Shown here one piece after another: positions 8,855 to 45,698 of a stretch of DNA of 61,229 nucleotides; position 1 is the first letter of the stretch; each line of letters starts with the position of its first letter. Source of the DNA: Raillietiella orientalis (Eukaryota); NCBI GenBank assembly GCA_036172245.1, contig JAYWIR010000151.1, forward strand, positions 1-61,229, given 5' to 3'. Below the pieces are notes generated by a model, which was not told the DNA's origin, made no database searches, and was given only the letters and a program-made list of their open reading frames with translations. A program made the translations under genes and the position numbers.

Positions 8855-9050
8855 GTGCACCGTTGTCGTCGAGCGTATTCCCGACCGCTGCGCAAAAGAA
8901 CTCGCCGCTACCGACGACAACCCCGCTGTTGACTCGGTCAACAGCGAGGGGATCGAGCCGGCGGCGGCGTCCGTCATCGACAGCACCATCGATGAGTTAG
9001 CCTTCGCGCGAGCCGCGGAGGAGCTGGCAGCCTCGTTGCAGCCAGAACCC
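8855..9050 (+). mobile_element. Diverged family C ORF1 fragment (C4)
   Basis: Aligns by eye to about 36863-37070 (CTVVVER...ARAAEELAASLQPEPS). Confidence 0.8.
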
Positions 9051-12900: not shown

Positions 12901-13131
12901 CCGAGCGGGCTTTCACTAAGCGCAGGGATTGAAGCCATCGGTTGCATACGCGCGATAGTTTCCGTCCGCCAGGCGTTGGTAATCAACGGACAGCACCAAG
13001 AGGTAATCAGCAAACCATCCTTCTACATGGGAGCATCTGCTAGATGGCCTCATTTGACAGAGGAGACAAAAAGGAATCTCGCCGCAATACACCGCCGGTT
13101 TGCACACCCTCAGCAGCGGCCAACCCGGTGA
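9921..13131 (+). pseudogene. B1 ORF2: truncated endonuclease, frameshift near 10470, then uninterrupted RT and zinc finger
   Basis: ORF 10216-13131 has WRPITL, DLHKAFD, RQGDSLSP, YADD, KYLG, GLG and CVLCGSTEWIPHLLLDC. Confidence 0.9.
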
Positions 13132-13443
13132 TCATTGCCCTACCCTCCATAAACTAATTTTGTATTTTGTTTTTACACCCGCGTCCCCATAGGCTCCGGA
13201 ACATTTGAGGTGCTCATCCTTTAAATCCCCGTGAGTACGGAGCCTAACCAAAAACCCTTCACCCTTCCCTCCAGTTTTTGATTTTTGTTTGTTTCCCCTC
13301 ATTCCCCCACGCTGCGAGCGGTTTGTTTACCAGGCCTGCGTGCCGGTAATTTTTCTATGTTCTCTGTAGTTCTGTTGGTTGAGGACATTGTGCCTGACCA
13401 GTTTATTATTATTAATAAACGCTCCGGCGTGACCGGTTGATAA
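9921..13443 (+). mobile_element. Family B copy B1 (5'-deleted) nested in A2
   Basis: Colinear with B2 21481-25003; terminal AATAAA and hairpin at 13414-13440. Confidence 0.9.
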
Positions 13444-16400
13444 ATTTCAATCTCCGCCTGCTAACAGGTGAGCCGGACAAAAAAGTGAACGCGATGAACG
13501 AGTTGTGCGCCGCCATGCGTGCGCGCAACTACTTCGCGGGTGAGAGGGGAATGGTCCGCAGCATCGACCACGTCTTCCTCGACGCTGACCTGTGTTCACG
13601 GGTCGGCAAACGAAGGAGGGATGCGTCAACGTTGTCGGACCATTCCCGGTTAATTTTAGAGATGCGGCCTCGCAACAAAGGACCGCCATTCAGGGATTGG
13701 CGTCTGCCGGGGGACTGGGCGCGACTCTTAGGTGCGAAGGAACACCTTCGCGAATACCTGAGAGGGGTCACGCTCCGGAATCTCTATGACTGGGACCTTT
13801 TTAAGCAATCGGTCCGGGATTTCTGCGAGCAGTTCCCACTGGACCGCCTGCCCTCCGGATTCGGCGAGGGTCCTCGCAACCATCGCGCCTATTTACAGGC
13901 CCGTAGGTAAGAGCGAACCCCTAATGTCCGTCGCCTGGCCGAGTACCGCGTTGGGGCCTAACGCCAAGCCTGGCAATCCGGGTCGACCAGCTTGCTGGAC
14001 GACCAGGGCCAAAAATTATCGTCCCCAGCGTCAGTACGGCATCTCGTGCGAAGTGATTATCCCTCCCTTTACGCCAGGGCGCCCCCGGATCAAGATGCCT
14101 CTCGGCTCTTGCTTCCGGATGGTGTCGCGGCAATAGGGGAGGAGGAGACGTTAAGCCTCGATGAGCCTTTTACCAACGGCGAAATTCTCGCTGGTATCAA
14201 AAGGCTCAAGAGGCGGAAAGCTCCAGGGGAAGACGGCTTGCCCGCGGAGTTCTATCGGAACTTCGCGGAAGAGCTGGCACCCCTGCTGCTTCAGCTGACA
14301 AGGCTGATCCGAGACGAAGGCGAAGTTCCCTCCTCGTTTCGGTCAGCCAGAGTGAGGCTCCTTCCGAAAGGGGGAGACCTTAGGAATTTGAACAGCTGGC
14401 GTCCGATCAAGATTGTGAATACAGACGCCAAGTTTGTTGCCGGTCTATGGGCTTCGCGTCTGGGGCAGGTGGCAGAATCCATAATTAGCCCGGAGCAGAC
14501 ATATGCTGTTCTTGGGCGAAGTATGGATGCCAACCTCTTCTTCGCGAGCACATGGATGCACGCGCAGAGGTGTCAAAAGGAAGGGAAAGAAAAAATCGGC
14601 AACCCCACTTTGGGGCCGCCAGCAGGGCAGGGAATGGAATCCCGGGCGCGGAAGGAAGCCTTAGCGCTCGCAGTCGATCTTCATAGGGCGTTCGACTGTG
14701 TTGACCAGGGGCTTTTGTTTGAGCTCCTGGGTCGCATGGGCTTCCCACCCTCCTTGGTTACCTACCTGCGCTCTTGCTGGCGGAATGCGATTATCTCCAT
14801 CTCTTCCAGAAGTCAGAATTTGTATGGCGTGCCGGTGCGGTGAGGCATCAGGCAGGGAGATAGCCTCAGTCCCCTGCTCTTCAGCACCTACTTTGAGTTG
14901 GTGCTGAGAGCCTACAGGGTGACTTTTGCCTTCTTGCCGAGCTCGTGTCCCGGCACGCCCGCCGTAGCAACCCATGCCGACGACCTTCTGCTCCTGTTAC
15001 CTATGTCCACCCCGGCGAAGGCGGTCGGAGACTTCTTCGATCTGCTCAGCCGTGGGACCGGACTGCAGGTCAACAGGGCGAAGTCGTCGGTGGTGCCAGT
15101 AAGTGCGCCGTGGGCAGGGCAGCAGAACTGGGTCCGTCTAGGGATCCCCACGGCAAGGTGCCTCAAGTACCTTGGTGTGCCGTTGGGTGACGACTCCCCT
15201 GCGGAAGCGTGGTCCAGCTGTCTTCAAAAAGTTGAGACGGCGATCGGCCCGTTCTTGGAAGTCAACTTTCACTTGCCGGAACGGGCCGCGGTTTGGAACG
15301 CCTTCGCGGATCCCATTCTCCGCTTCTTGCTTTTTGTTTGCCCCGCCCCCAGAGAATGCAAAAGAGGACAAAGGACCTCCTCCGCATAGCCCTTTGGGGC
15401 AAGGGGAAGCCCGAGTCCCTCTGAAGGACTTGTGCGCTCCGCGTCGGGACGGCGGCCTTGGCCTCCTGATGCTGGAGCGCGTGGAAATCCAGATGCGGTG
15501 GCGAACTCTCGCCATCGCAGCGAAGATGTCGAGCACCCCTTCGTGCGTTCCGGCCCGCCTCCTCGCCAGGCGTGTGTCCCGATGCGAAGGACTCGCGTCG
15601 TTTCTTCTGTGCCCTGGCCGGAAGTTCCGAACATGCGGCCTTATGCTCAGACGCATAGCAATCCTGGCGAAGACGAACGGTTGGATGGTTTGTGGCCCCG
15701 CCAACTGCTGTCACATGAGCTAAGCAGAACCGGAGGAGTGAAAACAATATGAACTGCCTGCGAATCAACCCATACGCCAACCGCACCATGCGGGAAATAC
15801 TGGAATTTCCCCGGAGTCGCAGGTGGGCGTTGACGATCCCCCTTGTTACGGCTATGCCCTACCTCCTGAGGGCGCTTCAGGATCGCCAGAAGCCGAGGTG
15901 GCAAGTCACCTGCCAGATCGCAGGCAGGGAGAAGATGTTAAGCGGCTGGACCACAGGAAAACTGGCGGACGCCACGACCCCGAGCGTCCAGCCGCGTGGA
16001 CTAATGAGATGGGGCGAGCTGCTCGCCATCCCTACGGATGTGCTGAAGTGGCCCCCGGTATTAAAGGAATCCAGGATCCTGCCATTTAAGTGGCAAGAGT
16101 CGGCGTTGCTTTTGTTGCACTGGGGTCTACACTGCAACGCGCGCCGCTTCCACTGGACGAGGGGAGCTGTGGATCCTGCGTGTGCCAGGTGCGGGGAGCG
16201 GGAGTCGCTTCCCCACCTTATTGTGGATTGTGCTGCCATCCGACCCCTCTGCGAACGGTTCGGGGCGACCCTAGGTGTCCCTACGGGCAGCACCCCCAGA
16301 GACGTTCTTCGGCCCCTCTTCGTGAAGGACGCACTGCAGCCAGCCGCAGCCATCGCAGCCTTGTGCTGTGTCCGTGGCATCGTGGCGGCATGGAGCGACG

Positions 16401-16790
16401 CCAATAACGAAGGAGTGGGTCCACACGCGAGGGATGTCGTCCCATACGCCCAACGCTTCATGCGGAGAGCTGCCGGATGGCCCCAACTGGGGAATATACG
16501 GACGGACCTCAAGGGCTTCCTTCAACGGATGGGCCCTCCTCACAGCGTTCAGTGATCCCTTCCCTGCCCTCCAACTTCTTTTTGTCTGTTTATGTTTTTT
16601 ATTTTTCTTTTTGTTTTATCCCCATCCCCCTTCGCTGCTGAGGAACGCTACGCTGGGCTGCGTCCCGGCGTCCCGGCAGGTCCAGTGCATATGGCCGTGA
16701 GCGGGGCCTTGTACCGCGGATGTAGAGTTTTTTTTTTTAAAAATAAACGCCCCGGGCGTACCCGGGTGTAAACCTCCGCGGCCAGTTGGA

Positions 16791-16797
16791 GGACGTG
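16791..16797 (+). promoter_or_regulatory. Conserved 5' GGACGTG motif (DPE-like); also at 9067, 19103, 35690 (+) and 2773, 8854, 50724, 60048 (-)
   Basis: Present within about 16 nt of eight 5' junctions from five families whose UTRs are otherwise dissimilar; function is inferred. Confidence 0.6.
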
Positions 16798-16876
16798 TTT
16801 TTCCTTCACTCCCCAAAGAGTAGTAGGAAAGCGCTTTTTCTTCTGTGTGGTGTTTTGTGTACATCGTCGGTGTCCA

Positions 16877-18628
16877 ATGGCCACGACGCCAGAGGACACC
16901 GCGATGGAGGTGGGAGTGGGGGAGGCTAGTTCGCCCCCACAGCCGACTGGAGCAGGGGCAGCCGCCCCGGAATCATCCCCGGCCACGCCGAGGACATGGA
17001 GCGCCATGGTGGCCGCGCCCAGCGCAGAAGCCATGGCGGAGATGGCCGCATACAAGGCCTCCGGGTACAAGCCTTCGCTTGTGTACCAGGTAGGCAACTT
17101 GTTCGACGGCCGGACAGCGCGCGCCTTCAGCAAAGCGTTGAAGGACGCGAATGTTACAGAGAAGGATCTGGACGGCCTCTCCGTCCTCAGCGGCGGGCAG
17201 CGGGTCGAGGTGGTCTGCAAAGATGTCACCTTGGCTCACCGCCTAATCCATGCGCCGCTGAACGTAGACGGCCGCAAGATCCTGCCAGTATCCATGGACC
17301 GCTCCGTGTTGGTCCACATGACTGGCATCACCAGCCGCATAACGCGGTCAGCGGTTGGTGAGGAATTGAGAAAGTACGGTGAGGTGCACGTACTGTGGCC
17401 GAAACCCTCCATTTTCGACGGCTTCGATAGCCTTTTTGGTGGGCAGGCTGCAGCGCGGGTCACCGTACGGGAGAATTGTGGGCTTCCCCACAAACTACAG
17501 GTGGCGCAAGAAAACGTCGACCTGTGGTATGTAGGGAAGCCCCGGTATTGCGGGCATTGTGATACCGTGGGACACCTACGTAAAAAGTGTCCCAATATAC
17601 AATGCCATTTGTGCGGGGAGCGGGGCCACGTTCGGCGCGTGTGCCCAAAACGTCCCACCACGGTTCCCCCTGCCGCGAAAAAAGCGCAGGGGAAACGCGC
17701 TTCAAAGGTCACTAGACCTAAAGTGGAAAAGGGCCAGCACAAGCTGCCAACACCTCAACCTCCGGCGCGTAAGCCGGAGGATAAACCTTCTGAAACGGTG
17801 GAAGGCGAAGAGGGATGGCAGCTTGTAGAGGCCAGAAAACCAAGGAAACTCCCACCCGCGGAGAGCAAAGAGCGCAAGACGGCCGCAAAGCCAAAAAAAC
17901 CCGGTCCGCGCTCGAAAACTCTGCGCGAGTGCACGGTGGCACTCGAACGAATCGTCGTTCCCGAGATTGCCATCCGGAGCGTCGATCCTCCCCTTGCCGT
18001 TTCCGCTGCGCCCTAGGCTCGCGACGGCGAACCCTCTGTTTACACAGAGGGTGAGCCGCGCGACATAGCGGCGGTCGAAGCCGCGGACGCCGCGTTCGCG
18101 CAGGCGGCGGAGGAGCTCGCGGTCACGCTGGCCGAGCGTGAGAACCCCTCGCGCAAGGCCGTGCGAAGGCCGGCTCCGGCGAGGAAGGCCCCAAAAGGTG
18201 AGTTAGACCTGGGGGCCGGAAGCACATCCTCCTCCTCGGAGGCACCCCCCAGGAAGTCGGGACGCAAGTCCCAGAAGCCCAGGAGGCGCCTCCCCTCCAC
18301 CAGCGAGGAGGAGAAGACGGAAGCCGTCGCCAGCGTGGGAAATTCGGAGGAGGAATTCCCACGCTTGGAAGCCGTCGATGCGGCCACCCCCATGGAGGAG
18401 GGTGAACAGGGAGGTGAAGTCCCCCCTGCAGGCGCCGACCCTGAACAGCCCGCCCCCATGGAGGAGGGCGAACAGGTAGGCGCGACTCCACCTGCGGATG
18501 ATCCGTCCGACGCGCCGGCACCGATGGAGGAGGGGGACCAGGTGCCTTCAGCACCTGACCCCCCTGCTCCACCTAGCGTCCCGCCCCAGCAGGTGGCGGA
18601 CGCCGCACTGCCATCTTCCCAGGAGTAA
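16877..18628 (+). pseudogene. A3 ORF1 zinc-knuckle protein (reading frame broken near 18016)
   Basis: ORF 16847-18016 has CGHCDTVGHLRKKC and CHLCGERGHVRRVC; acidic C-terminus in ORF 18161-18628. Confidence 0.88.
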
Positions 18629-19174
18629 CACCTGGGCTCGCCAGTCGCCGTCGGATTCGCGCGGCCTGTTGGAATGTCAACGGGCTGCGCGACGACGGTA
18701 ACAGGCGAGATACAGCCGACACCCTGCGGGAGTTGGACCTGGCTCTGTTGCAGGAGATCCTCGTGATTACCGCGGCAGACTTCCAGGAGATCGAGACGAT
18801 CGCGGGGGGTCGGCTGTAGTGGCAATGCGGCATCCGCAACACCTGCGTGGTCGCGTTCTTCGTGAAGCCGGCCATCGACGCTGCCGTGAAGGGCGTGCGC
18901 TTCGATGACGACGGTCGGGTCGGTCAGCTGACTCTCGGCTGGTCGGACTCGATCGATCTGATCGTCACGAATGTGTACGCCCCCACCGGTCAAAAGGGAT
19001 ACAGCAACCGTACCAGGCTGCTTGAATCCTTGAAGCGCGACTGGCTGGCGAACACGAGCGTGCGGAAGGCTCACCTGATAGCGGGAGATTTCAATCGAGT
19101 GCGGACGTGTTTTTCTTCGCTCTCGTCTCCGTGCTTTCATCCGCTTCATCTTGGCGTTGTACATTTTGACGACG

Positions 19175-21097
19175 ATGTCGACCCAACTTGAAGCTACTGA
19201 AGTTGGAGGAACAGCATCTGGATCTGCAATCGCGGAACCGACGGCCGCCTCCACCTCGTCTTTCTCGCCAATGGAGAGGAGTTTTGCTGACGTTGCTGCC
19301 ACAGCAGCCGTCAAAGGGAAGCCACTCGACGAGTCGGAGTTGCGGGCATACGTAGCCCAAGGCTATAGACCTGCTCTCCGATATAAGGTGAGTGGTTTTC
19401 TTTCTGCGCGCGACGGGAATCAGTTCAACGATGAACTGACCCGTGTTGGCGTGCGGGAGGAGGACCTTCTCGCCAGTATGCCCGTAAAAGACATGGGCTA
19501 TTTCAAGGTGCGTTGCAAAGACGCTGCACTTGTGCAACGCTTGCTGCGCACCCCGTTGTCGATCCGTGGCCAGAAGGTCTTCCCGGCCGCCATGGACGAC
19601 TCATTTGTGGTGGAGATTTTCGACATCGAGTCGGAAATCTCCGATACTGATATTCGGAACGCGTTGGCGAAATTCGCCACGGTCCATGCGCTGTGGAGGG
19701 TGCGTAGCAACCTCAAGGACTACCCGTCCATACACAGCGGAGTCGCTGGAGTCCGACTTACAATGCCGGACCGCCGTCTGCTGCCCACCAAACTACAGGT
19801 GAAAGACACGGTCGTTCACCTGTGGTTCGTGGGCAAAGTAAAAACGTGCGAGCAATGAGGGAAGGAGGGGCATTGTTTGGATAAATGCCCCTTTGGAAAA
19901 TGCCGTTATTGCAAACTATCCGGGCACCAATTGAAAAATTGCCCGGATCTTTTGCGAAAAAAGGCAGCCGCGGAGCTCCATTTTAAAAAACAAAGCGCGG
20001 ATAAAAAGAAAAAATCTGCGAAAAACCTGGAGACCCCACGGCAGAAATTCGGTAAAAACGCGAGGCGGAATGTCGCCCCAAAGCAGCAGGAAACCTCGCA
20101 CGCAAAGCCCTGCGCACCCCCTCTCGCGGCAGGGGAGCCGCAAAAGAAAGGGTGCGGGGAATCCGGGGCAATGGTAAGTCCCCCTAGGCGCAATAGCTGT
20201 CCTTCCCAAGCACGCCCGGCTCTTTCGGAGTTCGAGCAACCGGCGGGGACGTCAATGGACAACGGCGGTAAGGACACTTCCAGTACCGTCAGATCCATTC
20301 CTTCACCTCCTGCAGTGGCTGAGAAGCCCAAATCGGGTAAGAAGGGTTGTGCCGTGTCGACTTCGAAAGTCGGCAAAAAAAAATCCGCGTCGCGAACCAA
20401 CACCGCGAAAGCGGAGAAAAATCTCACGCCGTCGCAGTCGGAGAGCAAGCTCTCGACTGGCGCGGATGCCATACCAACGAAGGGATTAAAAGCCCTTCCG
20501 AAAGCAGCGTCCATGAAGAGCGTGTCGGAGCCATCGAAAGTGCTGTTGTCCAAAGACGCGGATGGCTTCAAAGATGGCCATGGAGCACAATCTCCATTTA
20601 CGGCGCCACGCGAAGTGAGGAACCGTAATGAAGTAAAGAAGACTTCAGCAAAGGTCCCTCGTGCAACTGCGCGTGAGCACGCTGAAAACGCGCGCGCCGG
20701 GAAAGCAGCCGTCACCAAAAGCGATGCTCTGGTGACGGAAAACGAAAACAGGACAGCTGTCAATCCAGCAGAACCTGTCACTACTTCGCGGAAGGCCGAA
20801 ACCCGATCGAACATGCGCCGGTCGGACTCCGAAATGGATGCCGTTCCGATCACCGAGACGAGGACAACTCGTTCGAAAGCGTGTGCGCGCCGATCAAAAG
20901 TAGGCAGCCAGGCAACTCTAGCCGCGAAGCCACGCGAAGTCTCCACGAAACCCGACGGGGATAAGCCTGGCGTGGAGGCACTACATGCATGCAGCACGAC
21001 AGAGGACGGTGGCGACCGTCCCCTCCAGCCAGTCGTGCTGCTCGCCGTCTGCTCGGCGGATAAAGCGAGCAAAAAGCTGCCACCTTCCCAGCAGTAA
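19175..21097 (+). pseudogene. B2 ORF1 (one in-frame TGA at 19856-19858, inside the first knuckle)
   Basis: ORFs 19151-19858 and 19877-21097 are in the same frame; knuckle CRYCKLSGHQLKNC. Confidence 0.88.
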
Positions 21098-24000
21098 TGC
21101 GGGGAATCGCGTCTTCTCGTCGTCTGTCCGTAACGTGTTGGAACGTGAACGGACTGCAGAACGACGAGAAGAGGCGATTAGTAGCCAACGCCCTGCGCCC
21201 CTTCGACCTCGCGCTCCTGCAGGAGATTCACGTAATCTCCGACGAGCAGGCAGCCGAAATCAAGGAGCGCGCAGGCGGAACGCTACATTGGCGGTGCGGC
21301 GGCGCACACACGTGCGGCGTCGCGTTCCTCGTAAGAGGAAAAATGGCGGAAGCGGTGCGTAGTGTTCGTTTCGATGACGACGGACGGATAGGCCAGCTTT
21401 TCATCAAGTGGTCCGAGTCCATCGATCTCGTCGTTACGAACGTCTACGCGCCGAGTGGCTCTCGCTACCTCGAAGAAAGAGTAGCTTTCTTTGGTGAGGT
21501 GCAGAGCCACTGGCTCAACAACTCCGGTTTCCAAGTGGCGCACCTCGTCGCTGGGGACTTCAACGTCCGTCTGCTCTCCGACGATTGGAGCCGCCCGAGG
21601 GAACGCGCGCTGCCCATCGAGATGTGCGCGTCCGTACACGCCGCCAACTTGATGGTCAGCGAACCTGGAATGGAAAGATCGCTCGATCACGTTTTCCTCG
21701 ATGAAAACCTGCATTCGCATGTGGGTAGGAGAGGAAGATTGTTGACTGAGCTTTCTGACCACCACAGGTTGGAGTTTGAGATCCTTCCGCCAAGCAGGGG
21801 GCCTCCGTTGCAAAGCTGGAGGATGCAGGCGGATTGGCTTAGCCAACCGGAGGCTGCGGAGCATCTACGTGGATACCTCCGGGGCTTTGCCATTCAAGAA
21901 CTTGCGGACTGGGACGATCTCAAAAGATCTGTCCGCGAGTTCTGCTGCCAATTCCCCTTGCACCGGCTTCCACGCGGTTTCGGAGAGGGCGTGGCCAACA
22001 GTAGAGACTTTCTGCATGCCCGCACGTTTTCGAGACGCGCGGATGTCGGGCGTCTCGCAGAGTACAAGGCGAGGGCCGAGCGCCAGGTCTGGCAGTCCGG
22101 AGCAGCATGCCTGTTGGACGACAAGGGCCAGGAATGTTCGGCCCCAGCCGAAGTACGCCGCATTGTGAGACGCTACTACTCCTCGCTCTACGCGGAATCC
22201 CCGACAAAGGATATTCTTTCTGAGATACTCCTGTCTCAGGATGCTCGTGTTGTCGGCGAGGAGGAACGCGAACGTCTCGACGAGCCCTTCACGGCGGATG
22301 AATTTTCGTCCGCCATCGCTGGGCTGAAGAGACGAAAGGCGCCAGGCGAGGATGGGCTCCCTGCAGAGTTTTATCAGTGCTTTGCAGTGGAGCTCATTCC
22401 CTTGATGCTGAAACTCGCGACGCTGATGAGTGAATCCGGGAATGTCCCTGATTCCTTCCGCTCAGCGAAGGTGCGTCTCCTGCCGAAAGGCGGAGACTTG
22501 CGCCAACTTAACAACTGGCGTCCGATCACCTTGGTGAACTCGGACGTCAAGTTGTTTTCCAAGCTGTGGGTCGCGCGGTTAGGAAGTATCGCGGAATCTG
22601 TGGTGAACCCGGTACAAACCTACGCGGTTCCGGGACGATCCATGGAGGCGAACATCCTTTTCGCGCGTACATGGATGCAGCTGCAGGAAGTTGTGGCGCA
22701 GCAAAGCTAGGCTGCTGCGAAAGTCACTGCCGCAGGCAAGAAGAACAGGCGCCGACGGCAGGAGGGAACGCCAGGTGCCTTGGCGGTCGCGGTCGATCTC
22801 CACAAGGCGTTCGACTGCGTAAACCAGAAGCTGCTTTTGGAGCTTATGGAACGCCTTGGGTTCCCGGCGCAACTCCTGCTGTATTTGCGCGCGTGCTGGC
22901 GCCACGCGCTAACCTGCATCACTTTTAGCGGCTGCAGCGTGTATGGTATTCCCGTTCGTAGGGGCATCCGACAGGGCGACAGCTTAAGCCCGTTGCTCTT
23001 TAGCATCTTCTTTGAGTTGGTGCTAAGTGCATACAGGCTGACGCTGTCTCACTTGCCAAGCTCCTGCCCGGGAACGCCTGCCGTGGCCGCCTACGCTGAT
23101 GACCTGCTTCTTCTGCTCCCCCTGTCCACCCCGGCGTCCAGTGTCGAGGATTTCTTCGACCTGATTCGTCGGGGAGCGGGCGTGAGCGTGAACAGAGAGA
23201 AGAGCGTGGTCGTTCCTGTGGGTACGTCGTGGGAGGGACAGTCCGACTGGATCCGCCTGGGGATCCCCACGGGCGGGTACTTTAAGTACCTTGGCGTTCC
23301 GTTGGGCGCTTTCGGCGCAGCCGAAGCGTGGGCGGACTGTCTTCAGAAAGCAGAGTTGGCCATCAGCCCGTTCTTTAACGGCAAGTTTACCTTGCAGGAA
23401 CGTGCGACTATTTGGAACACCTTTGTGGCCCCCCTCCTCCGTCCCCTGTTTTTTGTTTTGGACCCCCCCTATGCGGCAAAACAGCGGGCTAAGCGCCTGC
23501 TCAGGAACGCTCTCTGGGGTCCGGCGAGATCCAGGATCCGCCTTAAAGATTTGTCAGCTCCGCGTCGGGATGCTGGTTTGGGTATCCTGACAATGGAGCG
23601 ACTCGGACTGCAGGTGCAGTTCCGACTGCTGGCACTGTGTGCCCAGCTATGGACATCCCCCCTGTGTGTGCCAGCTCGCATTCTCCTGCGGAGATGCGCC
23701 GGCAGCGGAGGATTTCTCTCGCTTTTGCCGGGCACTCAATACAGGAAGCGGGGTTTCGGTTTTCCATTGCGGCAGTTGACCGCACTTCTGTAAGCACACT
23801 CTTGGATCTCCTGCCGCCCAATGAACTTTGAAGCTTGGCGGCAGGAGTCTGTTGAATCCTGGGCGGCGTTCCAAGGAATACGCCCTGAAGATCTTCGCCC
23901 CCTGCGCCAATTTTTTCCACGATCCTTGGAAGTAGTACTGCAGGACGAGGTGAAGTTTTCTACCCTGGCTGCCACGCCTCTTGCCGCAGCGCTGTCTGCC

Positions 24001-24690
24001 CTCAGGGCAAGAAACGACAGTTACCAACCGGCGAGGTGGGAGGTTTCCTGCACGATAGCAGGAAGAACCAAACTCCTTGGCACCTGGAAGACAAGTGAGT
24101 TGGCGGACGCCGCCACTCCTCGTGTTACTGCAAAGGGACTCCTCCGGTGGGCAGAAGAACTTGCTGTCACCCCCGAAGAACTTGTAGTCCCTCCACAGTG
24201 TATGGACAGTTCGCTGCTCCCCCTTGCTTGGAAACAAGACGTGCTGATTTTCGTTCACTAGGGTTTTCAGTGCAACGAGCGTTGGCATCGTGACTCCGGG
24301 GGACTTGCGTCTGCGAACTGCGTTCGGTGCGGATCGACGGAGTCGATTCCGCACCTACTTCTGGACTGCGGTGTCCTACAAGGACTGTGGCGTAGGCTGG
24401 CAACAGCACTATTGCATCCCGTGGACACCGCAAGAGACTTGCTGCGACGATTCTTCACGCCGAGCGGGCTTTCACTAAGGGCAAGGATTGCAACCATCGG
24501 TTGAATACGCGCGATAGTTTCCGTCCGCCAGGCGTTGGTAATCAACGGACAGCACCAAGAGGTAATCAGCAAAGCATCCTTTTACATGGGAGCATCTGCT
24601 AGATGGCCTCATTTGACAGATGAGACAAAGATGAATCTCGCCGCAATACAACGCCGGTTTACACACCCTCATCAGCGGCCAACCCGGTGA
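21097..24690 (+). pseudogene. B2 ORF2 APE-RT-zinc finger (in-frame stops at 22710, 23793, 24261 and near 24505)
   Basis: ORFs 21097-22710, 22780-23793 and 23821-24261 are in one frame and carry all APE and RT motifs. Confidence 0.92.
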
Positions 24691-24973
24691 TCATTGCCCT
24701 ACCCTCCATAAACTAAATTTGTATTTTCTTTTTACACCCGCGTCCCCATAGGCTCCGGAACATTTTAGGTGCTCATCGTATAAATCCCCGTGAGTACGGA
24801 GCCTAACCAAAAACCCGTTACCCTTCCCTCCAGGTTTTGATTTTTGTTTGTTTCCCCTCATTCCCCCCACGCTGCGAGCGGTTTGTTTACCAGGCCTGCG
24901 TGCCGGTAATTTTTCTATGTTCTCTGTCATTCTCTTGGTTGGGGACATTGTCCCTGACCAGTTTATTATTATT

Positions 24974-25000
24974 AATAAACGCCCCGGCGTGACCGGGTGA
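24974..25000 (+). other. Conserved 3'-terminal AATAAA plus CCGG-N5-7-CCGG hairpin (one of ten copies)
   Basis: Also at 5744, 13414, 16742, 28317, 41188, 53291 (+) and 29760, 33592, 54519 (-). Confidence 0.85.
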
Positions 25001-25003
25001 TCA

Positions 25004-28000
25004 ATTTCAATCTCCGCCTGCTAACAGGTGAGCCGGAAACACAAGTGAACGCGATGAACGAGTTGTGCGCCGCCATGCGTACGCGCAACTTGTTCGCGGG
25101 TGAGAAAGGAATAGTCCGCAGCATCGACCACGTCTTCCTGGACGCTGACCTGTGTTCACGCGTCGGCAAACGGGGGAGGGTTGTGTCGACGTTGTCGGAC
25201 CATTCCCGGCTAATTTTCGAGATGCGGCCTCGCGACAAAGGACCGCCATCCAGGGATTGGCGTCTGCCGGGGGACTGGACGCGACTCTCAGGTGCGAAGG
25301 AACACCTTCGCGAATACCTTAGAGGCGTCACGCTCTGGAATCTCCAGGACTAAGACCTTTTTAAGGAATCGGTTCGCGAGTTCTGTGAGCAGTTCCCCCT
25401 GGATCGCCTGCCCCCCGGATTCGGCGAGCGTGCTCGCAACCATCGGGCCTATTTACAGGCTCGTAGGTACGAGGGAACCCCTAATGTCCGTCGCCTGGCC
25501 GAGTACAGCGCCGGGGCCGAACGCCAAGCCTGGCAATCCGGGTCGGCCAGCTTGCTGGACGCCCAGGGCCGGGAATGTTCGTCCCCGGCGTCGGTACGGC
25601 ATCTTGTGCGGAGTTTTCATTCCTACCTTTACGGCAGGGAGCCCTCGGATCGAAACGCTTTTCGACGCTTGCTTCCGGATGGCACCCCGGCCAATAGGGG
25701 AGGAGGAGATGGAAAGCCTCGACGAGCCTTTTACCACCGGCGAAATTCTCGCCGGTATCAAAAGGCTCAAGAGGCGTAAAGCTCCAGGGGAAGACGGCTT
25801 GCCTGCGGAGTTCTTTCAGAGCTTCGCGGAAGAGCTGGCACCCCTGCTGCTTAAGTTGATCAGGCTGATCCGAGACGAAGGCGATGTTACCGCCTCGTTT
25901 CGGTCAGCCAGAGTGAGGCTCCTTCCGAAAGGGGGAGACCTCAGGAATTTAAAGAACTGGCGTCCGATCACAATCGTGAATACGGACGCCAAGTTGATAG
26001 CAGGGCTATGGGCTTCGCGTCTGGGGCAGGTGGCAGAATCCGTAATTAGCCCGGAGCAGACTTATGCTGTTTCCGGGCAAAGTATGGATGCCAACGTCTT
26101 CTTCGCAAGCACATGGGTGCACCTGCAGAGAAGAGAGAAGAAAGGGATAGGGAAAGTCGGCAACCCCACATTGGGGCCGCCAGCCGGGCTGGGAAGGGAC
26201 CCCCGGGCGGGAAAGGGGGCCCTAGCGCTCGCAGTCGATCTCCACAAGGCGTTCGACTGTGTAGACCAGGAACTTCTCTTGGAGCTCCTGGGTCGCATGG
26301 GCTTTCCACCCTCCCTGATTTCCTACCTGCGCTCTTGCTGGCGGAATGCGATAATTACCGTCTCTTTCAGCGGTCAAAAGGTGTATGGCGTGCCGGTGCG
26401 GCGGGGCATAAGGCAGGGCGATAGCCTCAGCCCCCTGCTCTTTAGCACCTACTTTGAGTTGGTGCTGAGAGCGTACAGGGTGACTTTGGCCCCCTTGCCG
26501 AGCTCGTGCCCCGGCACGCCCGCTGTAGCAGCGTACGCCGACGATCTTCTGCTCTTGTTGCCAATGTCCACCCCGAGGAAGGCGGTCGAAGACTTCTTCG
26601 ATCTGCTCAGCCGCGGGACCGGACTGCTGTTTAACAGGGCGAAGTCGTCGGTTGTGCCAATAGGTGCGGCGTGGGCAGGGCAGCAGGACTGGGTCCGTCT
26701 GGGGATCCGTACGGCGAGGTGCTTTAAGTACCTTGGTGTGCCGTTGGGGGACTTCTTCCCTGCGGAAGCGTGGTCCAGCTGCCTCCAAAAAGTCGAGACG
26801 GCGATCGGCCCGTTCCTGGAAGGCAAGTTTCACTTGCCGGAACGGGCCGCGGTTTGGAACGCCTTCGCGGCCCCCATCCTCCGCCCCTTGCTTTTTGTTT
26901 GCCCTCCCACCGTGGAATCCAAGAAAAGGACGAAGGACCTCCTTCGTATCGCCCTTTGGGGCAAGAGGAGTCCCCGAGTCCCAATTAAGGACTTGTGCTC
27001 TCCGCGTCGGGACGGCGGTCTTGGCCTCCTGACGCTGGAGCGCGTGGAGAAGCAGCTGCGGTGGCGATCCCTCGCCATCGCAGCGAAGATGTGGTGCACC
27101 CCTTGGTGCACTCCAGCCCGCCTCCTGGCCAGCCGTGTGTCCCGGTGCGATGGACTCGCGTCTTTTCTTCTCAGCCTTGCCGGAAGATGCGAAGATGCGG
27201 CCTACTGCTCGGGCGCATGGCAACATTGGCCAAGGAGAACAGCTGGATGATTTGCTGCCCCGCCAACTCCCCCGCCTGGCTGGAGGAAAATATTGGAACG
27301 TGGGCAGTGGTTAACAAGACAAGCCACGAGACGTGGAATCGTTTCCGATGCAGCCCCTACGCCCGCTGCACGCTGCGGAATCTCCTGGAGAGTCCAGCAA
27401 GATGCACGTGGGCAGAGACGACCTGTCTAGCTACGGCGCTGCCCTTCCTGAAAAGGGCACTTCACAGCAGCCGGACGCCAAGGTGGCAAGTCTCCTGCTG
27501 CATCGAGGGACGCGAAAAGTTGATCAGCGGCTGGACAACAGGAGAACTGGCAGACGCCACGACCCCGAGCGTCCAGCCGCGAGGAGTAAGAAGATGGGGC
27601 GAGCTGCTGGCCATCCCTATGGATGTGCTGAAGTGGCCCCCGCTTCTTCAGGAATCCAGGATCCTGCCTCTTAAGTGGAAAGAGTCGGCGTTGCTGTTGT
27701 TGCATTGGGGTTCACCCTGCAACGCACGCCGCTCTCACTGGACAAGAAGAGTTGTGGATCCTGCGTGTGTCAGGTGCGGAGAGCGGGAATCGCTCTCCCA
27801 CCTTATTGTGGACTGTGCTGCCCTTCGTCCCCTTTGGGAACGGTTTGGGACGATCCTCGGTCTCCCAACGGGCAGTTCCCCTAGAGACGTTCTTCGGCCC
27901 CTCTTCGTGAAGGACGCCCTGCAGCCAGCCGCAGCCCTTGCAGCCTTGTGCTGCGTCCGAGGCATCGTGGCGGCATGGAGCGACACCAACAAGGAAGGAG

Positions 28001-28140
28001 TGGGTCAACACGCGAGGGATGTCATCCCAGATGCCCAACGCTTCTTGCGGAGAGCTGCTAGATGGCCCCAACTGGGGAATCTACGGATGGACCTCGAGGG
28101 CTTCCTTCAATGGATGGGCCCTCCTCTCAGCGAACAGTGA
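25004..28140 (+). pseudogene. A3 ORF2 remainder (end of endonuclease, RT, zinc finger; frameshifted)
   Basis: ORFs 24997-25353, 25292-27250 (DLHKAFD, RQGDSLSP, YADD) and 26995-28140 (CVRCGERESLSHLIVDC). Confidence 0.9.
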
Positions 28141-28343
28141 TCCCTTCCCTGCCCCCCAACCTCACTTGTTTGTTTGCCTTTTTGTTTTTATTTTTGTTTT
28201 TCCTATTCCCTTTCGCTGCCGGGGAGTGCCACGCCGGGCTGCGTCCCGGCGTCCCGGTAGGTCCCGTGCATAAGGCCGTGAGCGGGGCCTGGTACCGCAA
28301 TTGTGGAGTTTTTATAAATAAACGCCCCGGGCGTACCCGGGTG

Positions 28344-31300
28344 GCAACGCCGAAACCTGGAGGGAGACGGTTCAGGGGAAACTGGTCGCAGAACTCGCGG
28401 ACTGAGCTCTTCAAGTCGTCCCAGTCCGCGAGCGACTGCAGATGGAAGCCTTGCAGGAACAAGCGAAGATGTTGCGCTGCTCCTGCGATGCGCAACCAGT
28501 CCCCTGGCAAACTCCACGCTGTGGTGGGTGGACCTCTACCGTGCGGGTGTATTTCTAGCGCGAGCCGGGGATGGTTGCAAAGTTCGGATGGCACTGCTTC
28601 TCGATTTCCCACCCGCGAACACAGGTGGTTGTCGAGGAACATGTGGTCGATCCTCGTCCCCTTCCCGGCGTCACCGGCCAACAAGTTGCGCGCGTGCATG
28701 GCAGCGCACATCTTGTTGATCAGTTGTGCGCGAATGTTGGGCGCACCTGCCAGCAGGCGGACGTTAAAGTCCCCGGCAATGAGGTGCGCCTTTCGTATGT
28801 CTGCTTCGGCCAGCCAATCTCGCCGCATGCCTTCGAAGAACGGAGTGCGTTCCCCGCGCCTGTGGCTCGTGCCGGGCGCGTACACGTTGGTCACGACGAG
28901 GTCGATCGCGTCGGACCACTTGGCAACAAGCTGCCCGATTTGACCTTCCCCGTCGAAGTGCACGTCGCGCAGCGCATCAACGACGGCTGGCTTCAGCATG
29001 AAAGCCACACCGCGAGTGCGGTCTTTCTTGTTTTGGTATACGAGCCGCCCGCCTGCGATCCGTTCGATTTCCTGGGCCTCCCCTGCGTGGAGCACGTGCG
29101 TCTCCTGCAGAAGCGCCAGGTCGAAGTCCCGCAGGCTGGCGGCCACTTCTCTCCTCTTGCGGTCGTCGCGCAACCCGTTGACGTTCCAACAGATTACGCG
29201 CAGTCGCCGGCAGGAGGAGAGTCCACGCGTTGGTGTGTTTATTGTGCTTGCTTACCGTCCTCCGCCTGCTGTTCAGCAGGCGGGAGTTGTGTATCCATTG
29301 CGACGGGCTGTTGCTCGAAAGGAGGCGGTCCGTCGGTAATTGTGGTGGAGGTTGGAGGATCCTGCTTGGCCAGGGATTTCTCCGGCGAGGAGAAGCGAGA
29401 CCTTGCGGACATCGCCTCCCCGTCGTCGTGGTCCGACCGCATTTCCTCCTCCGCCGGTGGAGGTGCGGAGCGAAGCGGGTTGCCTACCTTGCGGCCCGCT
29501 TTGCGCTTCGGGAGAGCGACAGCCGGAGAGTTGCCGGCTTCGGCTTCGGACTAAGAAGTCTCCGGTCCTTTCGCCTCATACGGACGCCTCAAGGCCTTCT
29601 TCTGGGCCTTGGGAGGCTGCTGGAGCATGGCTGCCAACTCTTCCGCCGCCTTGTTGAAGTCCCGGTCGTCGCTGCTCACGCTGGGCTCGCGACTTTGTCG
29701 CGGCGTCGGCGTTCGCGCGGCGGCGGGTTGTTCACACCCGGATGTGCCGGGGCATTTATTTCATAGAAATAAAATTACAGAAAAATGTCGCGTGGCGAAC
29801 CCGAAGGTTCACCACTCCAAAACAGCTTGCTGGTTACCGGCTCCGTGCCGGAGAGGTCCTTCCGATGCGCGGGGATTAGAAATAAAGAAAAACAAAAAGA
29901 AACAAAAAGTTCAAATGTGGGGGGGAACAAATGTTGTAGGGGTGGGAGGGCGGGGAAGGGATCACGGTGCGCGTGGAGAGGTCCTCTAGATCCTATTCAG
30001 GATCCGCACAAGCTGAGTCCTTTCAGCGCCCAAGTGGCGCCACTTGCAGACACTGCGCGCGAAAAGGCGAGTCCAGTGTAAGGCGTTGCCGGTTGGCTGA
30101 CGCCTTCTTCTGGTGGCGTTCCAAGCTGCCACTATTCCTCTGATGCAGCCGAGGACTGCTACACTAGCGGGCGGGGACAAGGCGTCACTACAGAAGAGGC
30201 GCCTGAAAACGTCCTTTGGGCCGCATCCGCGCAAGTCCAGGATCGCCGCGAGACGATCCCATAAAGGGCGGATGGCACTGCACTCGATGAGAAGGTGGGA
30301 GAAGGTCTCTTTTTCCCCGCACCGGTCACAATAAGGATCCACAGCCCCCCGGGTTGTGTGATGAAGGCGTGCTTTGAATGGAAGTCCCCAGAAAACCACA
30401 AGCAACGCCACATCCTGCCATTTCAGGGGGAGGGATGCACTGTTCCAGGACGCTGGGGGCCACTTCATCTCCTCCGGAGATAGTCCGAGTAGCTCGCCCC
30501 AGCGTCGAATTCCGTTGGGCGGGACACTCGGCGTCGCAGCGTCAGCTAGCTGCCGAGATGTCCACGCCTTTATCGAGTGTGTCCTGCCGCCTATAGTGCA
30601 GGACACGGTCCATTTCCCCTGCTCGCTACTGTCCCTGGCATTCACAAGGAAGGGCAGCACTGGGGCGAGGGGGTTATCAAGGCCCACAGAAGCTTGTCGT
30701 GGGACTGCACGATCTCCTGCAGCGTCCAGCGGGCGTGCCTTTTCATACAAGTGTTCCTTGTGCCCGCCGGAACGTGGATCTTTACCCAGGTGGAGACTGA
30801 CTCGTGCACCCAGGCGGAGTAGTTCCCTGGGAGGCAGGAGATCCAGGCGTTCTCCCGAACCGCAACAAAGATGCGTCGCAGCATAGAGCCACAGTATGGT
30901 CTTCTGCAGACGCGCGCAGACAGAAACGACAAAAGTCCGCCGATTCCGCAGGCTTGTTGGGCCAGGAGGCGTGCTGGAACGCACCAAGGCGTGTCCCACA
31001 ATTCTGCCGCAAGGGCGAGAGTCCTGAATCGAAGTTGTATTTCGATGCGCTCCAGCGTAAGTAAGCCAAGTCTACCGTCATTACGTGGAGCGCACAAGTC
31101 TTTGAGCCTCACACGGGACCTCCCTTTGCCCCAAAGGACTGTCCTCAGGAGGCCCGCTGCTCGTTTCCGAATAAAATAAGGGGCGGGGCAAACAAAAAGT
31201 AGGGGGCGAAGGAGGGGAGTTGCGAACGCGTTCCACACCGCGGCCCGTTCCTGCAACTAGAACTTGCCTTCTTGGAACGGACCGATCGCCAACGCTGCCT

Positions 31301-33274: not shown

Positions 33275-33562
33275 GCGTCCGCCGTGCACCGCGCAGTCAG
33301 ACGCTACTACTTCTGGTTGTACGCAAAGGAGTCCACGGAATGCAGTCTCTTTGAGCTGCTTCTTCCGACGGGTAACCCTGCTATCGACGAAGAGGAACAC
33401 GCCAGATTAGATTGGCCCTTCAAGGCGGAAGAAGTATCTTCCGCTATAGCGGGCCTGATGAGGCGTAAGGCGCCTAGGGAGGATGGCCTGCCCACGGATT
33501 TCTTTCAGTGTTTCCCGGCGGAGGTCGTCCTTCTGGTGCTAAGCCTTTTCTCTCTGATGCGT
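33275..33562 (+). mobile_element. Copy E2, first fragment (ORF2 linker and RT start)
   Basis: AVRRYYFWLYAKES...RRKAPREDGLP...LFSLMR; continues as SLMRETGDVP at 50736. Confidence 0.8.
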
Positions 33563-35772
33563 TTTAAACCCGGTTGCGCCGGGACGTTTATTTGTGAAAA
33601 CGAACCACAATCTTCAAGGCAAATTCATCCTTTCTAGACACAAGAAACGCCCATACAGAAAGTTCAGTTCAGAAAGATCACCGGCACGCAGGTTGCCTTC
33701 CAAAAGAAAGGAACAGAGGAAGAGGGATACAAAATAAGCAAAACATGAGAAAACAAACAAAGAAACAGTGGAGGTTGGGGTCAGGGATCCATGGTAGTAA
33801 ACGTTCCTGATCTTTCTAGAAGCGCTGTTTGACAATGGCGAATTCCCTGGAGACTTTTCTGCGCAGATGAGGCCACTTGACAGCTGCTTTCATAAGGTTC
33901 GTAGCGATTCTAACGGCGTCCGTTCGCTGCGAGCTTCCTTCTAGTTTACGGCGAGCGATCACGATGGCGCGGATGCAAGAGATTGTTGCGATAACAGCGC
34001 ATTTATTTAGTCCGTCTTTGCTGAATAAGCGTCGAAGCAGGTCTGTGGCAGTGTCCTGAGGACGACGAAGTGCCGAAGCAAGTCTCCGCCATAACTCCCG
34101 CAAGTCATTACACTCAAGGAGCAGGTGCGTAAGCGATTCTATCGCCCCGCACCTGAGGCAGTTCGGGGAGACGACTTTCCCTGTAACCAAGTTTCTGCGC
34201 TTATTGCACTAGAATCCCCAGTGCAGAAAAAGAAGAACATCCTGTTTCCATCGAAGCGGGAACACGAAGCTGTCCACACACAAGGAAGGGACCACGAGTT
34301 CTTCGGGGAGTAATCCAAGAACCTCACTCCAACGAAGAAGTCCCTTTGCCAGATTACGAGGAGTGGCAGCGACTACTAACACGCTCGTTCTGCAGCGGCT
34401 CAGCAGACTTCCCATTTCTGCAATGCTGCAGAAGAACTCCCATTTTGCCGGTTGGCTACTGTCGTTGTTTGCTCTGAGAGCAGACAGCGCTGCGGCGATA
34501 AGTAAGACGACTATCCGGGACCAAAGCGACCAGTCCCTTAGGATCACTCCTAGCGGTTTGCGTAAGATACCCTGTAAGGGTCGCAGTTGCTGTGGGCGCA
34601 CATCCAAAGTGGACGTCCAGTGCTCCGAAGCTTCCTGCTGCCAAGCATTCCAATTGGAGGGGCGGCAGGAAATCCAGGAATGGGCTAACAGCAACGAGGA
34701 CAAGTGCCTCAGTGGATAGCCAAATCCAGTTCTCCGGCGAAGGTTGCGCGGCAGCAACGAAAGCAATCCTGCACTGCCGACACATCGCTGGAGAATATGG
34801 CGAGCCGGAGCACACCAGTGACTTGACCACAATTTCCCACGTAGGAATAGAAGCCGGAACTGCACTTGCAGTTCAATCTTCTGGATAGTCAGGATGCCCA
34901 GGCCTGCGTGCTGGCATGGCGCCACCAAATCTTTGAGGCGAACCCTGGATCGGGCAGCGCCCCACAAGACCTTACGTAGGAGACGCTTCGCCCGGAGTTT
35001 AACCAAATAGGGAGGCGGGCAAACAAAAAATAAGGGGCGGAGGAGGGGTAAAAGAAAAGTGTTCCATATGCACTCTTTTTCCAACAAGACAAACTTGCCT
35101 TCCAGGAACGGGCCTAGAGCCATCTCTGCCTTTTGAAGACAGGCCGACCACGATTCAGACGAGCAGAAGTCGCTTAACGGTACGTCAAGGTACTTGAAGT
35201 ACCTGAGCGTGGGGATTCCCAGGCGGATCCAGTCGACCTGTCCCTTCCACGACGCACCCATGGGCACGACGGACCACTTCGCCCTGTTAACGCTCATGCC
35301 CGCTCCACGACGGATCAGCTCGAAGAAGTCTTGGACCGAGTTCGGCGGATTAGACATGGTCAACAGAAGCAGAAGGTGGTCGGCGTATGCTGCCGCGGAC
35401 GGAGTGCACGAAGAGGCGCTGGGCAGAACGGCCAGCGTCTGCCTGTACGCTCTTAGCACCAACTAAAAGTAGATGCTGAAGAGCAACGGGCTTAAGCTGT
35501 CGCCCTGCCTGATGCCTCTGCGCACGGCCACTCCGTACACACGGGAGCCACTGAAATGCAAGTTGATCATCGCGTGGCGCTACCAGGAGCGCAAGTACAG
35601 GAGAAGATGATTCGAAAGCCCAAGACGCTTCAGGAGCCCCAAGAGGAGTTCCTGGTTTTCACAGTCGAACGCCTTGTGCGCTCTAGGGTGGACGTGTTTT
35701 CTCGGTGCTCCTCGTGCCAGGAAGTCTCCCTCAGTGCAAGCGTCGTGTGATTCGGTGGTCGATCAGGCAGCT

Positions 35773-37433
35773 ATGCCTGACGCGACCACCAGGGATGGCC
35801 AGAGGGCAGCGGCAACGCCGCCCCCAGAGGCGATGGAGAGCCAGGGGGCGGCGGAAACGTCGCCCCCATAGGCGATGGAGGTGAGGGCATCCGCATCCAC
35901 AGAATCGGTCCCCTCTGCAGCGCGGGCGTGGAGCGCCGTTCTGTCGGCGCCATCGCCTGCAGCCGCGGCGGAATTGTCGGCCTATGTAGAGGAGGGGTAC
36001 AACCCCTCATTGTTCTACAAGGTAGGCAATTTATATTCTTTAGAGAGCGCGTGCGCCTTCTCGAAGGGCATGCGCGCTCTCGATGTGAAAGAGGAGGAGC
36101 TCAGCGCTATGACCATCCGCAGCGGGGGTCAGTACGTTGAGGTCATCTGCAAACATGCAGAGCTGGCCCAACGACTGCTTAAAACCCCCGTTGTGATGGG
36201 GACGCGCAGGGTTCAACTCACTACGGCGGACCGCAGCATGGTGGTCCACCTGTTAGGCGTGACCGCGCGAATGCGCAAAGACCAGGTTCGCGCCGCTTTG
36301 GAACAGTTTGGAACGGTCCACGCTCAGTGGACGAAAGTTAGTCCTCTCGGAGACTACACGGGGCTGCAACACGGCCTCACTGCTGCGCGCATGACCGTTC
36401 GGGAGGGCTGCACTCTTCCCCACAAACTGGTGGTCGAAGGCGAAACCGTCGAAATCTGGTATGTGGGGAAGCCGAAATACTGTGGCTTCTGCAATACGTC
36501 GGGCCACCTCAAAAAAAGGTGTCCCAATGTGCAGTGCCAAGTATGCGGCACAATGGGCCACACGAGGGAGGTGTGCCCAAAAGCAGCAGTGCGGGTGGTT
36601 TACAAGAGAAACCTTAAAAAACGCGCCCGGCTTCTGCAGAAAAGACTGGAGGCGAAAGCTGCCGCGAAGGCTGTGCCACCCGCGCCCAAGACCCAGGCCG
36701 CACCCGAGACCCCGGCGACCAACGCCGAAAAAGTTGAGGGAGCCGGCCAGGAGACTGAGTGGCAAGTGGCAACAGCCAAAAAATCAAAGAAGGAGAGGAG
36801 GATGGAAAAGAAAATCGCCTACCAACAGAAGAAGAAAGAGCAGGGTAGCGCGATAATTAAAGAGTGCAGCGTCGTTGTCGAACGCGTTCTCGATGTTGCC
36901 GAACGCTGCCGGAAAGAATTCGCCGCTACCGACGACCTCCCTCTGTTGACACAGTCAACAGCGAGGGGAGCGAGCCGGCGGCGGCGTCCGTCATCGACAC
37001 CACCATCGATGACGTAGCCTTCGCGCGAGCCGCGGAGGAGCTGGCAGCCTCGTTGCAGCCAGAACCCTCCAAGGCTGGCAAGAAGGCCGTAAGGCGTCCG
37101 GCCTCCCCTCAGGAGTCCCCCACTTCCTACCCCGAGGTGGAGGCCGGAAGCGCAGCCTCCGTTTCCACAGAACCGCGCAAGAAGGCTGGACGTAAGTCCA
37201 CAAAGCCAAGGAAGCTCGTCTCCCCCGCCGAAGGGGAAGAGATGGCTTCCGCAAGCGAGGGTGCCATGAGCGTGCGAAACTCTCGGGACCCGTCGCCCGA
37301 GAGACTCCCACGCACGGACACGGAGGGGATGGAGGGGGTGGAGGCCGAACAGGTGCCTCAGGTGCCTGAGAAGGCCGAAACCCCCATGGACATCCCGCCC
37401 GCCTCGCAAGAGGAGGGCTCCACCACACCTTAA
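35773..37433 (+). pseudogene. C1 ORF1 (TAG at 35869-35871, frameshift near 36940)
   Basis: ORF 35875-37017 has CGFCNTSGHLKKRC and CQVCGTMGHTREVC. Confidence 0.88.
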
Positions 37434-37447
37434 TCTTCCCAGCAGTA

Positions 37448-45685: not shown

Positions 45686-45698
45686 GTCTTCCCCTTTT

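Follow-up and report, generated by a model that had tools for sequence, protein, structure and literature searches.

Nesting of one LINE in the GDFN codons of a related LINE in Raillietiella orientalis suggests target-specific insertion

The locus

The stretch of DNA analysed here, which we call the window, is 61,229 nucleotides (nt) long and comes from contig JAYWIR010000151.1 of Raillietiella orientalis (assembly GCA_036172245.1). Nested retrotransposons of the kind that lacks long terminal repeats (non-LTR) fill nearly all of it, at a G+C content of 53-61%, and the structural conclusions below are drawn within it. Our subject is one of these elements, a long interspersed nuclear element (LINE) that we call B, together with the related LINE A in which it is nested. 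We aligned the copies by self-BLAST of the window, and identified domains with Pfam and RNA with Rfam. The sample of B consists of two copies, B1 and B2, both inside the window.

B2 (19097-25003, plus strand; 5,907 bp) is an L1-like non-LTR retrotransposon of full length, with APE and reverse transcriptase (RT) domains. It lies in sense orientation within the second open reading frame (ORF2) of the A copy A2 (about 16772-28347, plus strand). The 9-bp sequence ATTTCAATC stands at 19088-19096 and again at 25004-25012, both on the plus strand, and exactly 5,907 bp separate the two. This is a perfect target-site duplication (TSD), and its left copy reads (G)AT TTC AAT C, the D-F-N codons of A. When B and one copy of the repeat are taken out of A2, the in-frame sequence AHLIAGDFNLRLLTGE results. 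The window holds ATTTCAATC four times: at 341-349 on the minus strand and at 13444-13452, 19088-19096 and 25004-25012 on the plus strand. Shuffled sequences give an expectation of 0.32, and none of 100 shuffles reached a count of four.

The copy on the minus strand belongs to A1 (1-2790, minus strand), an A-family copy that the left edge of the window cuts off and whose site at 341-349 is uninterrupted. Self-BLAST aligns A1 to A2 in two segments, 341-1354 with 19096-18086 (86.8%) and 7-349 with 25346-25004 (91.8%). Their overlap is precisely these 9 bp, which makes A1 an empty site. Its flank at the site reads GCAGATTTCAATCTTTTTCTGC as against GGAGATTTCAATCTCCGCCTGC in the occupied hosts, and its variant of the GDFN site is GCAGATTTCAATCTTTTT. 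The nesting of B in the GDFN codons of A, the duplication and the empty site had all been reported in a first-pass annotation of this DNA, and all are real. That annotation also claimed that the insertion destroys the host active site. This goes too far: ORF2 is interrupted just after GDFN, and the motif's codons are duplicated, not erased.

Elements B and A

The identity of B follows from its parts. Its ORF2 (21097-24690) has no frameshift and encodes an APE domain (Pfam Exo_endo_phos, E=1.1e-12, 48.6 bits against a cut-off of 24.5, residues 15-222), which can be aligned to L1 endonuclease structures. Downstream of the endonuclease comes the RT (RVT_1, 54.2 bits against a cut-off of 29.6, segment 22711-23790), and at the C-terminus a weak zf-RVT match of 19.2 bits, below the cut-off of 27.5. 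Self-BLAST finds no terminal direct repeat within 19097-25003. With an endonuclease, an RT, no terminal repeats and a 9-bp TSD, B is an APE-type non-LTR retrotransposon. Among proteins of solved structure, human LINE-1 ORF2p comes closest (E=2.6e-33 over the N-terminal part of the RT), and ...VAGDFNVRL in B aligns with ...IMGDFNTPL in L1. This best solved match is the sole pointer by which B may be placed in the L1 superfamily.

The remaining features of B2 are those of a decayed copy of a complete element. Its 5' motif GGACGTGTTTTTC stands at 19103-19115, and other families in the window begin with it too. ORF1 (about 19175-21099) has a single in-frame TGA at 19856; it has no Pfam hit, and a Cys/His spacing is visible in its translation. 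ORF2 has premature stops at 22708, 23791, 24259 and 24502. Stop-codon reassignment was considered for these and rejected, for B1 has CAG, GAA, TGG and TGC there. The 3' end runs AATAAACGCCCCGG...CCGGGTGATCA and forms a short CCGGG hairpin (24974-25003) without poly(A). Rfam gave no match to an HDV-like 5' ribozyme in 18900-19500, where the only hit was a chance miRNA (E=1.2). At its own GDFN codons B reads GGG GAC TTC AAC GTC CGT (GACTTCAACG), and the site in A reads GGA GAT TTC AAT CTC CGC (GATTTCAATC).

The host of B2 is in two parts. The 5' part of A2 (16772-19096, plus strand, its start uncertain by about 2 nt) contains the 5' end motif, ORF1 and the N-terminal APE portion of ORF2, and is colinear with A1. 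ORF1 is open, starts at 16877 and encodes 381 amino acids with a CCHC knuckle, the zf-CCHC match (20.3 bits) being slightly under the cut-off of 20.8. The 5' part of ORF2 ends ...AHLIAGDFN. The 3' part (25004-28347, plus strand) holds the rest of the APE domain, the RT, a C-terminal domain and a 3' hairpin, and it is decayed by frameshifts and stops. It terminates in GGGTGGCAA, followed by CGCCGAA inside an antisense ORF2 fragment, H.

Public data add little to this picture. Among the Logan contigs listed from three public runs, none bridges the left or the right B2 junction by a 31-letter rule; the letters on the A side number 30 in record 1 (19067-22821) and 19 in record 5 (23983-25022). One Logan contig holds the empty-site joint 19087 to 25004 with a shorter side of just 21 letters, at least seven have A at 25002, which is the B1 state, and the contigs of one public DNA run contain a fraction of 0.67 of the B words. 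We draw no conclusion from any of these, nor from depth. Metagenome scans gave no match to the 23-nt B 3' end. A generic 3' hairpin pattern found two metagenome loci, which show no LINE protein similarity by tblastn and were set aside as chance hits. Just seven proteins among 8,000 scored candidates reached E<=1e-3, the best with 59% identity over 37% of the query, and they provide no context.

The second occupied site

A second locus, copy 1, lies directly before A2, and all of its parts are on the plus strand. It begins with block X1 (9054-9916), which is the A 5' end and the N-terminal part of ORF1 and is 97% identical to A2 16774-17641. Four nucleotides of filler, CGGG (9917-9920), mark a break, with A position 17641 on one side and B position 21481 on the other. 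Then follow B1 (9921-13443), which takes in the 3' 3.5 kb of B, starting inside the APE domain and reaching the 3' end, and the 3' half of a host that we call A-alpha (13444-16772), which begins with ATTTCAATC at 13444-13452 and is 85.9% identical to the 3' half of A2. From 9921 to 16768 copy 1 is colinear with 21481-28343 through B, junction and A. The two B 3' junctions are identical to the nucleotide: GGTTGATAA meets ATTTCAATC in 13435-13452, and GGGTGATCA meets ATTTCAATC in 24995-25012.

The first-pass annotation had described two occupied copies and a 3' junction recurring at 13444-13452 in a diverged host. Both 3' junctions are real and the host is indeed diverged, at 85.9% as against 96.05% for B. 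Its figure of ten differences in the first 120 nt past the junction comes to nine in our count, and the complete TSD is found in B2 only, the left half of the duplication being absent from copy 1. It had also called the B2 insertion the only sense-orientation link, which is not strictly so, for the 5' end of copy 1 too adjoins a sense-strand ORF1 fragment (8853-9053).

The outer joints of copy 1 are informative as well. The left end of X1 is the A 5' terminus, and it is joined through the microhomology CCTCC (9049-9053) to this fragment, a 200-bp remnant that resembles ORF1 of another element, G, and is 91% identical to 36896-37070. The remnant lies between the 5' end of a minus-strand LINE, F, on its left and that of copy 1 on its right. 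At the other end, the A-alpha 3' end directly adjoins the A2 5' end at 16764-16781 (GGGTGTAAA then CCTCCGCGG), with no target duplication between them. To judge from its anatomy, this abutment would be what is expected of end-to-end template jumping in one integration event.

One insertion or two

The question is whether the two occupied sites go back to one insertion of B or to two. B1 and B2 differ at 139 of 3,522 aligned nt (96.05% identity, two single-base indels), whereas the 3' halves of A-alpha and A2 differ at 467 of 3,314 (85.9% identity, nine indel events); the difference in divergence between the B part and the host part is significant (Fisher p=3.5e-51). The host differences fall 68/52/103 over the three codon positions, and this third-position excess (chi-square p=1e-4) indicates that both A lineages were still coding when some of the host divergence built up. 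Such divergence is impossible once B has split ORF2, so it predates the insertion. The B differences are even over the codon positions (38/32/45, p=0.33). The stops of B2 are private to it, as is a +1 T to B1, a frameshift at 10467, and thus B1 and B2 each decayed on its own from an intact source.

The first-pass annotation had named descent of all occupied A loci from a single insertion as the scenario that would count against it. In its simplest form, a plain duplication of the dead composite, that scenario is contradicted by the contrast of 96% with 86% and by the codon-position pattern, and we reject it. We also reject unequal crossing-over between tandem A copies, which predicts extra A sequence upstream of copy 1, where the G-like ORF1 fragment is found instead. 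What survives is a more elaborate form. B would have inserted once, the composite of A and B would have been copied beside itself as DNA or as a composite RNA, and the A 3' half of one copy would then have been replaced from a diverged empty A by ectopic gene conversion or recombination. That history would say nothing about target specificity. It is the main rival to a history with two insertions, and we consider it unlikely.

The first few hundred nucleotides past the junction bear on it. Over the first 349 nt, which A1 covers as well, 28 sites separate the two occupied hosts (8%), where the B rate would predict 13.8 (p=0.0012). Compared over this stretch, the three A copies form a star, with 20 private sites in A1, 16 in A-alpha, 10 in A2 and two sites that differ in all three, and A-alpha and A2 are as distant from each other as from the empty A1. 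A conversion tract would need one of its boundaries to lie no more than about 100 nt from the B junction and would span nearly the whole 3.3-kb homology between sequences 14% apart. A donor without B would naturally hold the tract boundary near the junction, which is a point in favour of conversion. The start of copy 1 at the A 5' terminus and its microhomology join to an unrelated LINE fragment would be left unexplained, and an internal deletion would still be needed as a separate event.

The ends of the copy 1 block point the other way from conversion. X1 differs from A2 by 25 mismatches and one gap in 868 columns (97%), a divergence very unlike that of the host 3' halves (p=7e-25), and the young block thus formed runs from the A 5' terminus to the B 3' terminus. 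Both coincide with natural ends of an RNA, on the left the start of the A transcript and on the right the 3' end of B, and together with the microhomology at the left join they favour an RNA-mediated second integration. Joins by microhomology are typical of LINE 5' junctions.

We believe that these data are best explained by two separate target-primed integrations of B, as a sequence-specific LINE like Tx1L, into the GDFN codons of A, and we put the probability of this at roughly 60%. Insertion at the same nucleotide in two diverged A copies suggests that B targets the GDFN-codon sequence, the number of cases being two and the cases neighbours.

Several observations weigh against two integrations and should be set out plainly. 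Copy 1 has no 5' junction, only the internal break from A to B, and with it lacks the left copy of the TSD. The occupied loci are adjacent and head to tail, where DNA-level copying is likeliest. The divergence of X1 from A2 is the same as that between the B copies (p=0.16), which makes X and B one unit of one age, as a duplication predicts. The best single change-point in divergence falls at 25320, with a 2-log-likelihood support of 25038-25345, which is 34-340 nt inside A and leaves the junction at 25004 just outside. The first 100 nt past the junction, with six mismatches, are indistinguishable from the B rate, and the first 34 nt are the same in both occupied hosts. Two integrations also require a template switch (or an internal deletion) in copy 1 along with a large target deletion on its 5' side. 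Finally, a specificity of the B endonuclease would be read from two junctions. On the change-point, the three-way comparison of A1, A-alpha and A2 suggests that it marks a part of A that is conserved locally, and not a tract the hosts share, although a short tract of at most 100 nt is conceivable.

Chance and artefact can be dealt with more briefly. In a dense nest of LINEs any new insertion hits a LINE, and two non-specific insertions might then have coincided; alternatively a mis-assembly might have created the second junction, and the Logan contigs listed do not bridge either B2 junction. Given an insertion in an A copy, the same nucleotide and orientation in a 5.7-kb host has a probability of about 1 in 11,000. 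An assembler does not make a perfect TSD at the termini of an element, and it would not give 4% divergence in B and 14% in A across one junction. We regard coincidence or artefact as very improbable.

A proposed mechanism

If B integrated twice, the following steps would account for what is seen. The B endonuclease would nick the bottom strand directly 5' of ATTTCAATC (top strand GGAG^ATTTCAATC), a position we infer from the junctions. The freed 3'-OH would prime reverse transcription at the 3' end of the B RNA, which has the conserved hairpin and no poly(A). A cut in the top strand 9 nt downstream (ATTTCAATC^TCCGCC), likewise a deduced position, would then yield the 9-bp duplication. At least two such integrations would have occurred, in A copies of different A lineages.

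Copy 1 would be a single aberrant integration. Reverse transcription of B would have begun at the same nick in an older A copy and, at B position 21481, the enzyme would have switched template to A RNA at position 17641, with the 4-nt filler added; this switch is read from the joint. Alternatively the template may have been a read-through RNA from an A promoter, ending at the B 3' hairpin. The cDNA would have run to the A 5' terminus and been joined to the upstream LINE fragment through the 5-nt microhomology, deleting the 5' half of the host.

Specificity in these steps could come from the B enzyme itself or from guidance by a 3' read-through RNA. A read-through tail that sets the register of integration has been proposed for R1/R2-type elements. 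In the strong form of this idea there were two integrations at the same nucleotide, and the precision came from RNA-DNA pairing, with the transcript of a B copy already lodged in A reading on into the A sequence downstream, and this tail annealing at the nicked site of other A copies; the GDFN codons would then be a historical accident of the first hit. The idea accords with the absence of a poly(A) tail from B, and with the first 34 nt downstream, which are identical in the occupied hosts and differ at 5 of 34 positions in the empty A1. An endonuclease nick at or near the site would still be required, which makes pairing a variant of site-specific insertion and not an alternative to it. We think it improbable that pairing was the source of precision, and rate it somewhat below the single insertion followed by replacement. 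The data do not tell the APE domain and the pairing of a read-through tail apart as the possible seat of specificity.

Other junctions in the window

Since the window is nearly all LINE, nesting itself is expected. Recurrence at equivalent codons is what hints, weakly and with at most two instances of each case, at a family trait.

Element G (35680-41218) splits a minus-strand LINE at antisense 'HKAFD' codons of the RT and is flanked by a 15-bp duplication (35665-35679 and 41219-41233) with two mismatches. A second G-family 5' part (85%) follows head to tail after the inverted duplicate G', with the same 12 nt, TCGAACGCCTTG, between them (54477-54488, and 53321-54488 on the minus strand). This 12-mer is unoccupied in B1, B2 and A2.

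The A family itself recurs at one kind of site. The 5' end of A1 (2786-2799, minus strand) and the 3' end of A2 (28339-28354, plus strand) both adjoin antisense ORF2 sequence, in E1 and in H, at 'GFG' codons, and CGCCGAA is common to the two junctions (2791-2797 and 28348-28354). They could be two A insertions at the same site or the two ends of one rearranged A array. Similarly, in the E family, the E1 3' end (5773/5774) and the 5' end of the related element I (about 33280/33284) adjoin antisense ORF2 at residues of about 350-353 ('A-x-E/A-V') in two different LINEs.

Larger units are nested too. A minus-strand LINE of about 17 kb (33562-50738) is flanked by the 8-bp TSD CGCATCAG (33554-33561 and 50739-50746) and interrupts another LINE (33284-33523 and 50736-52981) at 'LMR' codons. 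It carries G and also a unit in which a full-length U4 snRNA (43629-43766, plus strand; Rfam RF00015, 78.2 bits, model positions 1-138 of 138) stands directly upstream of a distant LINE family (ORFs 43976-48614, plus strand) whose ORF2 is 28% identical to that of B. The unit sits within the minus-strand LINE. It could be a template-jumping chimera of snRNA and LINE, a LINE with an snRNA-derived head, or a U4-associated element. Part of a host LINE, with the nested G, recurs in a 6.7-kb inverted segmental duplication (34521-41230 and 61217-54477, 95.6%), whose two copies differ in what flanks them on the right. For several insertions of the nest the left flank does not match the right one, which points to deletions or inversions.

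The families share their ends. A 3' hairpin motif matches nine element 3' ends in the window with at most two mismatches, for example at 5744, 16742, 24974, 28317 and 41188. The LINE families end in AATAAAYGCCCCGG, a loop and CCGGGTG, then a few A-rich bases without poly(A), and they begin with a motif like GGACGTGTTTTTC. The hairpin is probably one recognized by the RT, and the 5' motif probably a shared promoter element. Covariation in the stem could not be scored because the stem is the palindrome CCGG.

These junctions invite a wider idea, which we hold only tentatively and consider doubtful: a guild of related sequence-specific LINEs, each homing to a fixed conserved coding sequence of the others, with catalytic codons favoured and the attacker escaping through synonymous codons. 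B would home to the GDFN codons of A in sense; in antisense, G would home to the 'HKAFD' codons of the RT, A to the 'GFG' codons and E to the codons around ORF2 residues 350-353. Such LINEs would be hyperparasites that shelter in their relatives and knock them out. A victim could not freely change its catalytic codons, while B's own site, GACTTCAACG, differs from the GATTTCAATC of A. The first-pass annotation had described the insertion site as a sequence the host cannot easily mutate, and we offer this, with the immunity of B through synonymous codons, as a hypothesis.

Comparison with known systems

Target-specific LINEs are known for ribosomal DNA, telomeres, snRNA and tRNA genes, microsatellites and one DNA transposon, Tx1D. 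LINE reverse transcriptases are also known to jump end to end between templates, and chimeric U6-L1 retrocopies exist. Such jumping and such chimeras serve as a model for the copy 1 fusion with its filler, for the abutment of A-alpha and A2, and for the U4 upstream of a LINE.

The nearest parallel to B is Tx1L. The APE-type target-specific LINEs fall mainly in the Tx1 and R1 clades (PMC4640811). Tx1L integrates at a single site of the transposon Tx1D, and its endonuclease nicks almost nowhere else (PMC1950540); a review cites it as an example of transposable elements that target others (PMC6719617). Like Tx1L and Tx2L of Xenopus laevis, L1-superfamily elements of the Tx1 clade that insert at one site inside the DNA transposons Tx1D and Tx2D, B is an APE-type LINE with a probable specific target inside a mobile element, and it forms composites. 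The specificity of Tx1L resides in its APE endonuclease (PMC1950540, PMC6719617), whereas that of B would be deduced from two junctions. Unlike Tx1L, B would have as its target the coding sequence of a related autonomous LINE, at catalytic-motif codons and in sense orientation. If the second integration is accepted, B may thus be likened to Tx1L in type of specificity, with a target and an orientation that would be new.

Other target-specific elements share part of this pattern. R1Bm, TRAS/SART and R2, site-specific LINEs of rDNA or telomeric repeats, insert precisely into one sequence, with a fixed short duplication or deletion, stringently recognize a 3' end rather than poly(A), and form tandem or nested arrays, and B would resemble them in these respects. 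They target multicopy genes or repeats of the host, a 'safe haven', whereas B would target and inactivate the enzyme gene of a retrotransposon. R2 uses a restriction-like endonuclease, and B has APE. The APE and RT domains of B are colinear with those of human LINE-1 ORF2p, with GDFN aligned, but L1 has a loose TTTT/AA nick consensus and poly(A), and B ends in a hairpin that lacks poly(A), with a target that is apparently unique. We found no report of a LINE that targets the coding motif of another LINE in the open-access literature searched.

Implications

If B inserted only once, the locus is an ordinary nested insertion that was later copied. If the two integrations are real, the homing of B to the catalytic-motif codons of A would be a clear case of one transposon parasitizing another and a new class of target. 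Nature would here provide a model for conflict among mobile elements, with a target that its own function constrains. B would also be another naturally reprogrammed APE endonuclease, with a target of at least 9 bp, of interest for understanding and possibly for engineering the choice of targets by LINEs. Homing of this kind would account for the growth of islands made of LINEs alone, of which this 61-kb nest is an example.

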